A stretch of 64,000 bases of DNA from positions 32,001 through 96,000 of IMG/VR virus record IMGVR_UViG_3300024999_000049; one strand, 5' to 3'. Shown one piece after another: positions 22,596 through 40,088 of this stretch. Below the pieces are notes generated by a model that saw nothing but the letters and a program-made list of their open reading frames with translations, was not told the origin of the DNA and ran no database searches. The position numbers and the translations under genes are program-made. Within the stretch, counting starts at the first letter, position 1; each line of letters starts with the position of its first letter. The stretch comes from a virus.

Positions 22596-23361
22596 TACCT
22601 AATGAAAAAATATTTTTATAATACCATTACCTATGAGGCTATATCCTCTGACAGTAAACATAATGATCTAATCTCCTTCCTATTTATTATGAGTGAGATA
22701 GTATTTTTAAGGTCTACTTATTTTATTTTAATATCATCCGACATATTGATATATAACGTTTGTTTTTTAGAAATGGTAGCACATCCAATCTTATCATCGT
22801 TTTTATCATACAATTCTAAATAAAGTAAAGGATGATTATTCTCAAAAGTAAATATATCATGCCTATATACATTGAACACACTAACACCGTTAATTGTTAA
22901 GCTATGGCAGTCGTTATCTGCTTCAATTTCTTCAATACTTGTACCTACTAATAATTTCAAATCATTATAACTTAATACCTTCATAATCATTCTCCTTCTT
23001 CCTGTTATACAGGATATAAAATAGTATTTTTATTTCCTACTCATTTTCTTTTTTCTTTTATCTATCCATTCGTCAAATTCTTGATTATTTAAATAAACCA
23101 TAGGTATACATGGATTACTATCTGCAATATCTCTATAATCTACAATTCTTCCAATTGATTTTCCATCTTCATAGATATATACAAAAATTTTTTCTACTGG
23201 TTTTATTGAGTTTAATCTATTAACTACTCTTTCTACTAAATCATCCATATCATTGCTTTGACCTAATTCCATTTTATATCTATTAAATTCACCATAGTTC
23301 CCTATTGCTTCATACATGTTCATACCTCCATTAATCAATTGAATTTCTTATTTGATTGTTT

Positions 23362-23523
23362 TTATACTTCATACCCAAATGGTATCTCAACATTATTCTT
23401 TTGAAGTATACCAACAATTTCTTCATATCTTCCAGATTCAGTAAGTGTTAAGTTATGTTCTTGCTCCATCTCTGTTAATTTGTAAAGTTCATCAAGTAAA
23501 TTATCAAATGTATTATCTATCAC
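23362..23523 (-). CDS. 53-aa acidic protein, paralog of 27342-27503 (not in ORF track)
   Basis: GGAGG RBS, GTG start; LLDELY...LT...RY..IV..L..N...IPFG.E shared. Confidence 0.65.
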   Translation of the reverse strand: MIDNTFDNLLDELYKLTEMEQEHNLTLTESGRYEEIVGILQKNNVEIPFGYEV

Positions 23524-23536
23524 CTGTTATACCTCC

Positions 23537-34741: not shown

Positions 34742-34797
34742 TAAAATACACTTCCTTTTTAATTTTATTTTTTGTTATAGATTGAAGGATATTATAT

Positions 34798-37700
34798 TTA
34801 TCTAATTCCCAATTCCATTTTTAATCTTTTTTCCCAGTCTATCGGCTTGACATGTATTTCATTTTCCATTTTATCAACTATAATTGATTTACTTCTCTGT
34901 GATTTTAATTTTAAGGTATCACCAATATTATAGTTTTTTCTGACTTTACCAATGAGATATAAAACTCCGTGACCTTTAAAATATATTTTTATCATTTTTT
35001 TTTTCATTCCTTTCTATATTATATTTATTTGCTTTAATAAGCTTTAAAACCCATAACTTTTATGTATTGCTGTTATACTGTTTACAGGTTTTAAAGGGTA
35101 TTAAATACCCTTAGAATCATTTAAATTTTTTAGTACTTTTATTGCAGATTCTTTTTTACTAACTTCAAACAATCTTAATAAAAATTTTTCTTTTAACGAA
35201 ATTATTGTTTCAATTGATTCTACATCAATATTATACAATTTGCTGATATCCTGCATTATTTCTGCTTTTGTTTTGTTATAGTGTGGCATAATAGAGTTAA
35301 CATATTCACCATTAATAATTAAAGTATAAATTCTTCCTGACTGATAAATTTTATTCATTGCTAAAATCACTCCTATATTTTAGTAGTAAACTGTTATATT
35401 GTTTACTCTATGGCTACACACCATATTATTATTGCTGTTTTATGGTGTGCGCTAACAGTAGACAAAATCATTCGCATTGAGATATCAAAAAATTACAACA
35501 ACCTTGCTTTCTCAATTCTCTTGCATTATCATGAGCTTCAAGCCACGAATTAAATTTTTCTTGATAATTAAAACCGTTATTGTCGGAATAATCTAAATAA
35601 TACATTTTTACACCTTCTTTCCTTCTATTTGTTATAGAAAATTATAATCTTTTCATTAATCCATTAGAGGAAATAACTTCAAAGCGGAAATTTTCGCCAG
35701 TGTTAGTAATATAACATTTTCCGCGAATAGTTCCACAATCACAGTCTTTCATTCCGCATAATGCATTATTAATTCTATTGTCCTGTGATTGTGTCAATCT
35801 AAATGTTTTTGTTTGCTCATTGTAATTGATTATTACATTACATTGAGTATTGTGGAAATTGTTTACAAGAGTAACTTTTAAACGTGACATATAATTACCT
35901 CCATGCTTTAAGGATAAGCATACCTTTAATTTTAAGTACTATTATGTACTTTATAAATTATACCATAGATATTAACCAGACTATGGCATAATCAGATAAA
36001 AAACATAAAAGCAGGTCATAAAAACTGGATTTTATCGTGCCTTTATTTCTTGTGTGCTGTTATTGGTTAAATCGTGAAATATAGCTGTAAAATCCTGATA
36101 ATTGATTCTTAATTCAATATTCATTGTTGCAAGTGTATCTTTTATTGCTTCAATTTGATTAAACATTCTTGTTTTTACTTCCTTTTTTCCTGCTACTTTT
36201 GCAATTGTATTGTCCTTGTATAATGTAAGTTTTCTTTCGATAAGGTTTATTAAATTTTCGTTATAGTGTGCTAACATTTTTATTCTCCTTTATGTTTTAT
36301 ATTTGTTCTTCGATTATGATACTTGCCATTAAAACCATAAAATTAAAATCTTCAAAATTTGTTTCATCTTCTGTAAAATTTTCTAACATAATTATTTTTG
36401 CTTCTTCTGTGCGATTTTCATCAAGAGCTAAAACATCTAAATAATTTTTATCTTTATCTAGTGCTTCAATGCTGTTATAACGTTCCCATATTAATTTTTT
36501 ATCGAATTCTGTTAATGTCATATTTTAAACTCCTTTCATAAAGTGATTAAAAGTTATATTTTATCGTGTTATTGCTATTCTTCACACCATGTAATCATAT
36601 AATCAATTCCGTCAATTAATCCTAGTTTATTAGCTGCCTGTATTGCTTCTGATTCTGTTTTATAAAGCGTTGTGTTTTCAATTGGCATATCGTTTATCAT
36701 ACTTGTTATTTCATATGTTATAACTTTTCCCATTAACATGTAGTCACAAAAATTGTCAATGTCTTGCTGTGTTAATATCTCGTAATTGTTATCAACTGTT
36801 ATTTGTACTAGATTTTTTTCGAAGTCAAAATCGGAATCAAAGGACAAACTATCATTAGTAAAAAATTCTTTCAATGCTTCATGGAATAAAATGTCATTTG
36901 ATTTACATTTTTCGTGATAGATTATTTCTAAATTTGTCATTGTGTTATACCCTTCTTTCATTATAAATTTTAATAGTCATAGTGATATGAAAATCTTACT
37001 GTTATATGATTTTTAAACTTTTTGACTTTTACATACCTTGCGAAACAATTTCCTGTACAATCATACATAGAGTTAATATGGTAATATTCATTATGTAAGG
37101 AAATACCATGCTTATAAAAATACCTTATTACCTTTTTAATATCTGCATGATTAAAAGTATAATGTGTTATCCTTGTATCACTGTTACCTGTATTTAATTC
37201 TCTTATCATACCATATTCAGTATTTGTTATTTTGCATTTATCACAGTAGTCATTTATACCATTGAATAACTCAAGGTAATTTTCATATTCTTCTTCACTT
37301 GTTAATGTAAATGTCATTTCCTGTTGATGTCCACATTTTTTAAATTTGATATTACGAGTTTTAATTTTTGGGTTTTCAAGTGTTATCATTGACATTGTTT
37401 TATCCCTCCATAAATTTATTTTAATCTTATTTACATACTATGTAAATATTCCAGTGTATAAATTGTTATTGCTTGACTTGTTATACACTGGAGAAATACA
37501 TACTATATTAATTAGTCCAAAAGTCTATTTTATAAGTATCATTTTCTCTTGTAAAAACCATTTTACTTTTTCCGTCATTAATGTTTAAACAATAACTTTT
37601 GTTATCTTGTAGGTTGACAATTTTATTTGTTGTTTCCTCAGATAAACTAAAATTTTTGCATACTGTTTTAATGTTATATGCCGGAATTCTTTTTTCAATC

Positions 37701-40088
37701 CTTTTTGAGTATTCAAGCATAGTTATAATTTTTTCCATTGTATTATGCTCCTTTATTCTGTTATTATATTTATTTACTATCCAGTAAATAAGTCATAGCA
37801 TAGACTGTTATTCTATGCTATCAATAAACACTGGCTTGTTATTATAGTTAATTAAAAATTTTATATATGTCTCTGACTTCTTGTGCTTTTATATTGCAGC
37901 CGTTTTTATAATCTTTGCTAATATCTTGTCCTTTGACATTAGATTGATTACTATAATATGCTGCAAGTGAGTCTAATGCTTCTCTTATTAATATCAATTC
38001 TCTTTCTGTAAATTGTTCTTTCATGATTTTTGCTTTTTCAGTCATAATATTATCACTCCATTTTTTAAAGTAGTACATTACTTTTATGTACTCTATAAAC
38101 TGTATACACTGTCACTATATACAGTCTAACAACACATAAATATGTTATTTCATTTACTAAATTCAATTTTTCCATAGTAAGGATAAAAACTACCATCTCT
38201 ATATATTTCATATCTAAATGTTTTATCCTTTGTTTGATAAATTGTTATAATACTGGAATTGTAGTTATTACCAATATTATGGGATAATACGCTTATTTTT
38301 TTATAACTTTTTGGAATTTCTCCAAGTGGTTTACCTTTGTAAAGAATTGCTTTTCTGTTATCAAGTTTTTCGCCTTGTAAATTTCCATTTACTATTATTT
38401 CTTTTTTCATATTTATACACTTCCTATTATACAAAGTAGTAACACTTTGATTATACAATGTTACTCTATACAATGCACTATCAATTATTTTTTGTTATAG
38501 TGCATTCAAACAGTAGCATTATTATATTTTTTCTGTTATAGGTTTATTAATGGATTTTCAATGGCTATTTGGTAAAATTCACCTTTAATGTCGCATAACT
38601 TGCAGCATTCAAGATACTTATAACCTGCTACATAATTTTTATTGAATGCCTCATTTATTATCTGGTATGCTAAATCCATATTATCATTATTATATGCTTT
38701 GTAAAACTCTCTTACTATGTACATTTGAAGGTTATCAGCATTATTGACGGAGTCTTTCAAAGCAGATACTAACATATTCGCTTTTTCAAAGTTTTGTTGT
38801 ATTGTGCTTTTTATCATTATATTTCCTTCTTTCCAATTTTATTTGATAGCCATTTTATACTATCTATAAAAGCCATAACTTTATTGCTGTTATGACTTCT
38901 AACATGGTATAAAATCAATTTTGAAAAGCCATTTTTAATACTTCTATTTCATTTTCAGCATTTTCATATGATGTATATTCTTTTTCTTTTGATTCTTCAA
39001 TACATTCTAATGTGCTTCTATCTACTGCAAAATAAAAGCCTTCAATGTAAAATTTTCCGTCAATTTCCGTTACAGATAAGCCATTTAAATTAGTCAATTA
39101 TTATTTCCCTTCTTTCCTATGAAATCAGTTTTTATTAACGTGTATTTAATATTAGATAAATTTAAAAATCTTCCAAACCAGAATTTAAAGCTTCCTTCAA
39201 AATCATTCCATTCATATGTTTTTGTTTTATCTTCCCATTCTGTACAAGTTCTCACTGTTAACATTTCATCATCAATTATTAATGTATTTCCCTTTACTTC
39301 ATAACCTTTGATTGTTAATACTTTTTTTAATAATTCCGTTCTATGTGTTAAGTTCGGCTTGATTACTTTAGTTAAATTAATTTTAATCATTCAATTTCCC
39401 TCCATAAACTATGTATTTTAACCTCTTTACTCTGCATTTTACAGGCTTGTAACTGTTATAACATTGCTGTTATAGCTGCATTAAAGAGGGATGCAAGTAA
39501 ATTATGCATTCCACATTAAATCTTCTAAATATTCTTCCAATTCATACCATGATGTACACTCAAAAAGTAGTTCTCCGTTTTCTGTTACTTCACAGTTATT
39601 TAGGCTATCAACTGTAATTTCCATACTACCTATGATGCATTCACCGTCATTTTTTAGTGCTTTACGGACTTCTGTAAGTGATATTGATTGTATGTTCTCA
39701 AATTTTCTACCTTGTGTCATTGTAAACACCTCCAATAAATTTATTAAGGATATACATGTTATTTTGTTATTGTTATTTTAACATATATATCCTTTTTTCG
39801 GTATCCTGTATTTGGTTTTGTTGTTCAGCTATTGTATAAACTTAACAGTTTTTCAAATGTCTTGTTTATCATTTTTTCATCCATTATTGTGTAAAAAAAT
39901 TCTTTACTGACTGTTACAATTTTTTCATTTTCCATTTTCCAATTGTATACACCTAATGTTATTTCCTCATTTCCATTTATAAAAAATCGGAAATACATTT
40001 TTAATCTGTCATGAGTATAAATCCATGATAATTTTTCAGTATCTTTTTTAATGTTATTTAATTCATCAAGATTGATTATATTTAACAT
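34798..40088 (-). other. Run of ~17 small early/host-takeover-type genes separated by hairpins
   Basis: 60-141 aa co-oriented ORFs with strong RBSs, immediately downstream of the 40.67 kb promoter. Confidence 0.7.

Follow-up and report, generated by a model that had tools for sequence, protein, structure and literature searches.

A polar hexamer concentrated in the small-gene block of a large phage and of three distant relatives

The stretch of DNA analysed here (the window; 64,000 nucleotides) covers bases 32001-96000 of a single 120,193-bp phage contig, IMG/VR virus record IMGVR_UViG_3300024999_000049. Within it, one block of small genes is studded with the hexamer TAACAG, almost always on the coding strand and at ~23 times the rate at which this sense-oriented word occurs on the rest of the contig. 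The same word crowds the corresponding arm of three distant relatives, in blocks whose genes are almost wholly unrelated to those found here, and in all four genomes it is more frequent than codon usage predicts. We tentatively read it as a mark on the transcripts of this block, recognized in single-stranded form and acting in proportion to its density.

A strand-specific word confined to one gene block

Counted as its complement CTGTTA on both strands of the whole window, the word occurs 102 times, compared with 37.6 +/- 7.3 in 100 dinucleotide shuffles, none of which reached 102. Most of these copies lie between 23002 and 39916, with 82 on the plus strand and four (27192, 31185, 35453 and 39843) on the minus strand. 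All genes left of ~40.1 kb are encoded on the minus strand, as seen from negative GC skew and open reading frame (ORF) calls, so that the sense-strand form of plus-strand CTGTTA is TAACAG. In this sense orientation, the 17.1-kb zone has 82 copies, its own arm just nine more over the other 55 kb, and the opposite arm (45 kb) 12, with no enrichment there in either orientation; nearly all 2-kb bins of the contig outside the zone have the word once or lack it. Two further copies, at 21928 and 22527, lengthen the run to 84 and give the zone the following outline, based on counts.

21928..39916, minus strand: motif zone with 84 sense (D)TAACAG copies (82 of them in 23002-39916) and ~50 small, mostly orphan genes

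An initial annotation of this DNA had proposed a polar hexamer limited to such a zone and rare in the reverse orientation, which agrees with the ratio of 82:4 inside the zone and the 21 sense copies in the other 100 kb. Every CTGTTA position it listed is present, with 23472 having been missed; its ~38 copies in 23.0-28.7 kb number 37 by our count, and its ~4 copies in the first 22.9 kb correspond to five on the plus strand in 1-22.9 kb.

The base in front of the word is far from free. ATAACAG accounts for 58 of the zone copies, TTAACAG for 14, GTAACAG for 10 and CTAACAG for none, and the word is therefore best written D-TAACA-G, with D being any base other than C. At the last position, A, C or T in place of G still leaves TAACA ~4-fold enriched in the zone; all other single-base variants lag far behind, AGAACAG and ATCACAG standing at 3-6 copies and ATAACGG at 4. 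We found no conserved flank within +/-30 nt of the zone sites, whose spacing is irregular. Self-BLAST revealed no repeats or paralogy inside the zone, so duplication does not explain the abundance of the word. The AT skew of the zone is somewhat unlike that of the rest of the arm.

With 50 genes called in the zone, 47 of the 82 copies fall inside ORFs, 33 of them in the frame xTA-ACA-G and 14 as xxT-AAC-AGx. The remaining 35 are in non-coding DNA, which makes up 21% of the zone, and five of these furnish the stop codon of the upstream gene. As many as 21 of the 82 begin in the 45 nt that precede a start codon, in most cases immediately 5' of the Shine-Dalgarno sequence; the word sits either there or between the Shine-Dalgarno sequence and the start codon (for example TAACAGGAGG and AGGAGGTATAACAGGTG), and is never the Shine-Dalgarno sequence itself. 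Examples of paired sites are apparent from the sequence.

24346..24368, minus strand: paired site, with 17 nt from one copy to the other and a Shine-Dalgarno sequence following directly 3'
25103-25125 and 26242-26264, minus strand: paired sites of the same layout

Within ORFs, the excess can be set against what the encoded proteins and their codons would produce. The 47 copies in zone ORFs compare with 18.7 +/- 3.6 expected from a synonymous-codon shuffle (maximum of 30 in 500 shuffles) and with 9.3 +/- 2.8 from a codon-order shuffle. A second ORF caller gave a very similar picture for this phage, with 49 copies against 19.6 +/- 3.7 in the synonymous shuffle and none of 300 shuffles reaching the observed count. 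The adjacent 22.7-kb block, in turn, carries five copies against 4.6 expected, which is the neutral rate. Since the excess outlives both shuffles, the very challenge that the initial annotation had named for its own claim, codon bias is not the cause, and the word is under nucleotide-level selection in the zone, beyond codon usage.

The word in three distant relatives

By their portal proteins, the nearest named relatives of this phage (25-30% identity) are Thomasclavelia TR-TP1, Brevibacillus Sundance and the Lactococcus 949 group, all large Firmicute siphophages. Genomes suitable for comparison were reached via a 301-amino-acid (aa) protein, which has 83 homologues, many of them on contigs of 140-220 kb, and for which 23 sequences were aligned. 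Three genomes were compared with this phage; two of them are part of metagenome-assembled genomes (MAGs).

43077..43982, plus strand: gene of the 301-aa protein, which at 64-71% identity among the four genomes is better conserved than any other of the clade
G001:C134, 167,468 bp: relative on a Tissierellia MAG
G002:C258, 170,645 bp: relative on a Bacillota MAG
G003, 167,493 bp: relative from an IMG/VR record, whose ends overlap by ~127 nt and which looks like a circular assembly

An unbiased scan of all hexamers for local excess gave the top rank to TAACAG/CTGTTA in two relatives, G002 and G003; in G001, it came second, behind the overlapping TGTTAT. Thus, the comparison with relatives that the initial annotation had called for returns the same word in all three. 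G001 has 52 copies in ~16 kb, G002 22 in ~8 kb and G003 26 in 3.3 kb, in each case on the coding strand of the corresponding arm, next to 1-2 antisense copies, and in the zones of all four genomes C never precedes TAACAG. The ORF counts again exceed the synonymous shuffle (29 vs 12.5 +/- 2.8 in G001, 12 vs 5.0 +/- 1.8 in G002, 14 vs 4.4 +/- 1.6 in G003); the observed value exceeds all 300 synonymous shuffles in each of the four genomes, and the codon-order shuffles are exceeded as well.

This agreement spans a considerable distance. Identity between the structural proteins of the four genomes is 22-36%, and any one relative has homologues of just 3-6 of the ORFs within or next to the zone of this phage. 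A particularly informative example is the orthologue pair formed by 25416-26039 and its G001 counterpart, which have four and five sites, respectively, with one aligned column in common; density has therefore been kept and site position has not. Several of the "lost" sites in this pair are one base off the word (TAACAA, AATACAG, TAACGG). Selection thus installs the word in whatever genes fill the block.

The location of the zone within the arm varies. Measured from the start of the 301-aa gene, its limits are 3.2-21.1 kb here and 8.5-24.8, 16-24 and 18.1-22.5 kb in G001, G002 and G003, respectively. In G002 and G003, the 13-15 kb between the divergence of the two arms and the zone are co-oriented with it and full of strong sigma-A-like promoters, and the ORFs of these proximal blocks hold zero and one copies, respectively, against 4.6 +/- 1.7 and 5.0 +/- 1.8 expected. 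Taken together, this is one copy against 9.6 expected (Poisson tail ~7e-4), an avoidance of the word in the next block that is seen in G002 and G003 and not in this phage. As a separate observation, the proximal blocks of both relatives (2.5-17.5 kb from the 301-aa gene) have a strong sigma-A-like promoter every ~1-1.5 kb, several of which open with TAGTATTGACA or have a TG-extended -10 element.

Searches for closer relatives added little. Megablast of the zone against 50,697 phage records gave no match, and close-relative scans of viral contigs yielded one locus for the portal and none for either the ArdC-like protein of the zone or the 301-aa protein. A metagenome scan by alignment returned 33 loci; the 15 that were examined, over no more than 10 kb upstream of each, showed 0-1 sense copies, which is uninformative because zones can begin 16-18 kb away.

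We also asked how the word is predicted to sit in folded RNA, using 106-nt sense-strand windows with permutations of the same letters and random positions as controls. In this phage, the word is predicted to be 0.64 unpaired compared with 0.50-0.54 in the controls (p 5e-6 to 5e-4), and in the three relatives pooled, 0.62 compared with 0.55 (p 0.0016). A siting in hairpin loops, as suggested in the initial annotation, applies to a subset of sites, which recur as stem-CA-UAACAG-stem in all four genomes. It does not hold as a rule, given that loops are no commoner at the word than at control positions (in this phage, 11% vs 15% with a stem of at least 5). There were no Rfam matches in the window, and no RNA data set was listed as containing the zone.

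Possible readers of the word

We favor, with a probability of roughly 0.45, the reading that the word is a dose-dependent mark on the transcripts of this block, read single-stranded and following a logic like that of the T4 nuclease RegB and its GGAG target. D-TAACA-G would then be a class mark, selected and conserved in the family, that labels one block of small accessory early genes on their sense strand and is recognized most likely on mRNA by a trans-acting factor that may be either phage-encoded and clade-conserved or a host protein. Its effect would scale with site density, at about one site per 100-200 nt, and the marked block would meet a fate unlike that of the neighboring early block. 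The likeliest effects would be timed endonucleolytic inactivation or decay, or translational control at those sites just 5' of ribosome-binding sites. We infer RNA as the molecule read, along with the kind of reader and the outcome, from the pattern described above: the share of copies in the non-coding 21% of the zone (35/82), their clustering within 45 nt upstream of starts (21/82) and the sense-to-antisense ratio of 82:4 are what a RegB-type signal would be expected to display. The fallback offered by the initial annotation, a possible RNA tag on early transcripts, seems to fit better than the Chi- or KOPS-like reading that it put first.

Several findings weigh against such a mark. The accessibility effect is modest, and single relatives give p 0.047 (G001) and p 0.15 (G002, not significant). 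No RNase or RNA-binding domain was found among the ~80 proteins scanned with Pfam, about half of the ORFs of the contig, and no RNase family among 60 proteins scanned with PHROGs. The rest of this phage carries the word at the neutral rate (5 vs 4.6), and cleavage at all sites would affect transcripts from there as well. Transcription runs in the direction leading away from the presumed DNA end in all four genomes, and no zone in any of them contains an inverted gene; polarity therefore cannot separate RNA from DNA readings. Finally, some copies resemble DNA operators, namely those in three promoter spacers and in arrays around a helix-turn-helix (HTH) gene of G003. The features concerned, together with a further promoter of the zone, are these.

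33022..33051, minus strand: sigma-A-like promoter TTTACA-18-TATAAT with two word copies (33030, 33038) in the spacer
30580..30609, minus strand: perfect sigma-A-like promoter, sequence TAGTATTGACATACTAA..., recurring in G002 and G003 and located mid-zone in this phage
28896..29150, minus strand: Cro/C1-type HTH protein, 84 aa, whose G003 homologue (35% identity) is flanked by GG-TAACAG-C arrays

The conserved promoter TAGTATTGACATACTAA... immediately precedes the densest stretch of the zone in G002 and G003; two word copies in G002 lie ~1 kb upstream of this promoter. The densest array of all is in G003 (36.4-39.8 kb), where three GG-TAACAG-C units 28 nt apart precede a 96-aa HTH gene and six copies follow it in the downstream gap. 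The stop codon of this gene is the TAA of a word copy, and one of the six downstream copies lies in the spacer of a TTGACA-17-TATAAT promoter.

Such arrangements would be expected if the copies were duplex sites for an asymmetric, monomer-type DNA-binding regulator that occupies or silences the block, be it a Cro/C1 HTH protein, the 301-aa protein with its winged-helix likeness, or a tyrosine-recombinase-fold repressor like MrpR. The word also fits the asymmetric recognition form of Myb-type proteins, YAACNG. The HTH gene amid the G003 arrays has its homologue in the zone of this phage, and all four genomes have kept a tyrosine recombinase, whose fold is also that of the master repressor of SPbeta (PMC10516654). 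We nonetheless regard a duplex binder as unlikely. Word-bearing promoter spacers number only three across the four genomes (33022-33051 here, and one strong promoter each in G002 and G003), and 47 of the 82 sites are irregularly spaced within genes, where a repressor operator would be placed at promoters and oriented freely with respect to the coding strand; such a binder has no obvious need for a polarity of 82:4 inside ORFs. Its precedent, the SPBRE element bound by MrpR, has 15 bp and occurs at about ten promoters (PMC10516654), unlike a 6-mer repeated 80 times, and the lower predicted pairing points to single-stranded reading. That last property, together with the sense-only orientation and the restriction to one zone of transcription units, would also suit a signal on displaced non-template DNA or nascent RNA that speaks to the transcription machinery, through a NusG/RfaH-style pause, anti-pause or antitermination, and keeps long operons of tiny genes transcribed despite their few promoters. 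NusG-type factors read short words in the non-template strand, and the zone of this phage has just four sigma-A-like promoters scoring at least 11/13 between arm coordinates 2.5 and 22 kb. Even so, this explanation is improbable: promoters and word are not inversely related in G003, in which the promoter density of the zone equals that of the word-free proximal block (~0.75 per kb); no NusG/RfaH-like gene was seen among the proteins scanned; and known loading sites act once per operon rather than every 200 nt.

For the Chi-like reading, the gap between the two arms and the genes to its right are relevant.

40100..43040, no strand: non-coding divergence region, ~3 kb, between the oppositely coded arms
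50051..52864, plus strand: YonO-like single-chain RNA polymerase (Pfam RdRP PF05183, E 1.3e-11)

The zone does adjoin this divergence region in this phage, as had been pointed out in the initial annotation, and it lies next to the corresponding region in G001. The region contains an inverted DnaA-box-like pair (TTATCCACA at 41151-41159 and TGTGGATAA at 41178-41186), a GT-rich half with repeated GTGTAT (~40.75-41.4 kb) that faces an AC-rich half with repeated ATACAC (~41.9-42.45 kb), and two rightward sigma-A-like promoters (42578-42606 and 42794-42822). Its layout suggests an origin, perhaps one that includes pac, and synteny with SPbeta makes it the probable pac/origin region. SPbeta-like phages have their opening point, or pac, in the divergent yonR/yonP gap and package into the late arm (bioRxiv 10.1101/2021.11.22.469490). 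In this phage, the portal, terminase, ClpP-like protease and exonuclease are encoded on the plus strand from ~55 kb, and the order of RNA polymerase, exonuclease, terminase and portal is that of SPbeta. DNA packaged last is injected first. Because the gene order matches that of SPbeta, the small-gene arm would plausibly be the last to be packaged and is probably the first to be injected. To this extent, the first-injected zone envisaged in the initial annotation is plausible; the accompanying idea of a Chi- or KOPS-like mark for a DNA motor or nuclease is not supported.

A Chi-like signal would take the form 5'-CTGTTA(T)-3' on the strand ending 3' at the entering end, where it would attenuate a host helicase-nuclease of the AddAB/RecBCD type and so bring about less degradation, less CRISPR spacer capture or more recombination. 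The sites are indeed polar, co-oriented and selected for density, the presumed order of injection and the strand geometry suit an enzyme entering from the divergence side, and Firmicute Chi sites are short. A precedent exists in the phages LLS and MD8, for which 20/23 and 32/32 co-oriented Chi sites cluster near one end (PMC12315714). We consider this signal quite improbable, however, given that the zone begins 16-18 kb from the divergence in two of the four genomes, G002 and G003, and that the block nearest the presumed end avoids the word there (0 and 1 ORF copies vs 4.6 and 5.0). As a positive control for a DNA-level polar word we used AGCGG, the known Chi of Bacillus subtilis, and the G-rich AGGGGA in SPbeta (NC_001884). 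AGCGG is polar at 50:6 over the whole of that genome, with 16:2 and 30:4 in its two oppositely transcribed arms, and AGGGGA at 26:2 and 31:2 in the two arms is likewise polar regardless of gene direction. TAACAG, by comparison, is zone-limited, its opposite arm holding 12 sense copies in 45 kb; no genome-wide polar word was found in this phage or G003. Nor does it resemble KOPS/SRS signals, as it is confined to 4-18 kb of genomes of 120-170 kb and lacks genome-wide replichore polarity. With regard to the skew check proposed in the initial annotation, the word is ordinary in samples (133 kb and 165 kb) of the two putative host MAGs, those with G001 and G002 (sense/antisense 65/40 and 80/64, rank 11-12 of 120 permutations). 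In addition, this phage has recombination genes of its own (Sak4-like AAA_24, RecJ-like, exonuclease), which in lambdoid phages goes with few Chi sites (PMC12315714), and its word is ~10 times denser than known phage Chi clusters at ~1 per 1.9 kb. There remains the view that nothing reads the word, which would have arisen from local composition, common ancestry of the block or local mutational bias. The somewhat different AT skew of the zone would be in line with this, but the excess survives both codon shuffles in four genomes, the zone is free of repeats and paralogy, the word is identical in four zones almost wholly unrelated in their genes, no enrichment extends to variants with one mismatch except those at the last base and ATAACGG (four copies), and sites turn over by point substitution with density kept. 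This view is close to refuted.

Some further candidates were dropped. Among them were primase sites, which leave the restriction to a zone unexplained; the site orientation of Type III/ISP restriction, which would cover polarity but leave the enrichment unexplained; a 6-mer of the BREX type whose fifth base is A, or CAG as a context for m6A; and likeness to the 16S rRNA sequence UAACAAGG. Complementarity to the anticodon loop of tRNA-Asn, or a target for TGT/DpdA, was set aside with AAC in frame at 14 of 47 ORF sites only and no TGT-like gene seen. A promoter for the YonO-type polymerase was also rejected: SPbeta and TR-TP1 have the polymerase but no TAACAG zone, the late arm is not enriched here, and no second promoter element is conserved. 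YonO itself uses a single late promoter of unknown sequence (PMC5467207).

Returning to a single-stranded mark on transcripts, it can be elaborated into a kind of zip code. Newcomer genes entering a hypervariable block would be re-coded to about one sense ATAACAG per 100-200 nt, upon which a conserved single-strand reader of no known family would treat them all alike, for instance by destroying them at a set time, protecting them or gating their translation, and the neighboring immediate-early block would avoid the word in order to escape this treatment. This fuller version is speculative, and on balance we lean against it. A whole-word literature search found, judged by title and among the matches listed, no published description of this word as a polar word of phages or bacteria, and a search for over-represented hexamers in phage early genes gave nothing corresponding among the matches listed.

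What makes the question worthwhile is the nature of the block. It is the fastest-changing part of these genomes, with 3-6 of ~50 genes common to relatives and one of them encoding an ArdC-like anti-restriction protein, and blocks of this kind are the usual seat of host-takeover and anti-defence genes. A short word imposed by selection on all incoming genes would, if confirmed, describe how large Firmicute phages in general control what they acquire horizontally, and the word would flag early or accessory modules in the genomes of uncultured phages. Once its reader is known, it could provide a compact cis-tag for synthetic control. The four genomes provide independent copies of one signal, which makes the case unusually testable.

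Genes of the phage and comparison with known systems

The 50 proteins of the zone are mostly orphans, among which two Cro/C1 HTH proteins and one ArdC-like protein could be recognized. Two genes deserve mention besides the HTH gene listed above.

33881..34741, minus strand: ArdC-N plus zincin metallopeptidase gene, anti-restriction-like, recognized by its domains
29176..30088, minus strand: "gene b", the sole zone gene common to two of the three relatives, with 147 homologues and no Pfam match

Gene b encodes 132 aa in G002 and G003 and has an N-terminal extension of ~150 aa here. Its last ~36 residues continue in another frame (29176-29331) at 75-80% identity to the relatives, which could reflect a frameshift, a sequencing error or programmed slippage. 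A model of the G003 copy (pLDDT 94.9) predicts a four-stranded sheet followed by four helices; it had no Foldseek match at E <= 0.001, and its best VIA match, at Z 5.0 to phiKZ Dip, is under the noise level. Dip, for its part, is an inhibitor of the RNA degradosome. The 301-aa protein was modeled at pLDDT 70, with only weak winged-helix Foldseek matches (best E 0.013; plasmid RepA_N-type initiator, MarR/SarS), and is possibly a replication initiator or DNA binder, its gene lying beside the origin-like divergence region.

Two minus-strand genes of the window, 6535-7413 and 947-1981, bring to mind MrpR, the recombinase-fold repressor of SPbeta. The first encodes a full XerC/D-type tyrosine recombinase that is kept in all four genomes; the product of the second, of 344 aa, has a faint integrase SAM-like match only. 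Outside the window, a 54-aa protein encoded at contig positions 31579-31743 (minus strand), 257-421 bases to the left, is 50-56% identical in the four genomes and has a weak ribbon-helix-helix match (RHH_5, E 0.0012). The 120-kb contig, which has no end overlap, is probably incomplete; a contig of 191,715 bp carries proteins 100% identical to its portal and 301-aa protein.

Three known systems invite comparison. With SPBRE and MrpR of SPbeta, the word shares its occurrence as a cis-element repeated along the early arm, in a phage that encodes a YonO-type polymerase, and including a few copies in promoters (PMC10516654). It differs in being a 6-7-mer at more than 80 places, mostly within genes and strictly polar, and SPbeta has no TAACAG zone. 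The Chi clusters of phages LLS, MD8 and P1 (PMC12315714) are similarly polar, over-represented, positively selected, shuffled with modules and clustered in part of the genome. Yet the word here is ten times denser, confined to one block co-oriented with transcription, avoided in the block nearest the presumed end in two of the four genomes and not special in candidate host MAGs; SPbeta, the related model phage, carries the Chi of its host genome-wide.

The third system is T4 RegB. In early mRNAs, this nuclease cleaves GGAG chiefly where translation is initiated and also at some coding sites; secondary structure protects against it, and middle and late mRNAs escape (PMC3014915). The word described here lies beside the Shine-Dalgarno sequence and not in it, is longer at 6-7 nt and far denser (~1 per 200 nt), has more than half of its copies (47 of 82) in ORFs, and has no RegB-like or other RNase gene to match it among the ~80 proteins scanned. 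What the two have in common is a short sense-strand word placed in intergenic and translation initiation regions of one temporal class as well as at some coding sites, a dependence on secondary structure, and the escape of other classes. By this analogy, the logic of TAACAG appears closest to that of RegB and its GGAG/U targets.

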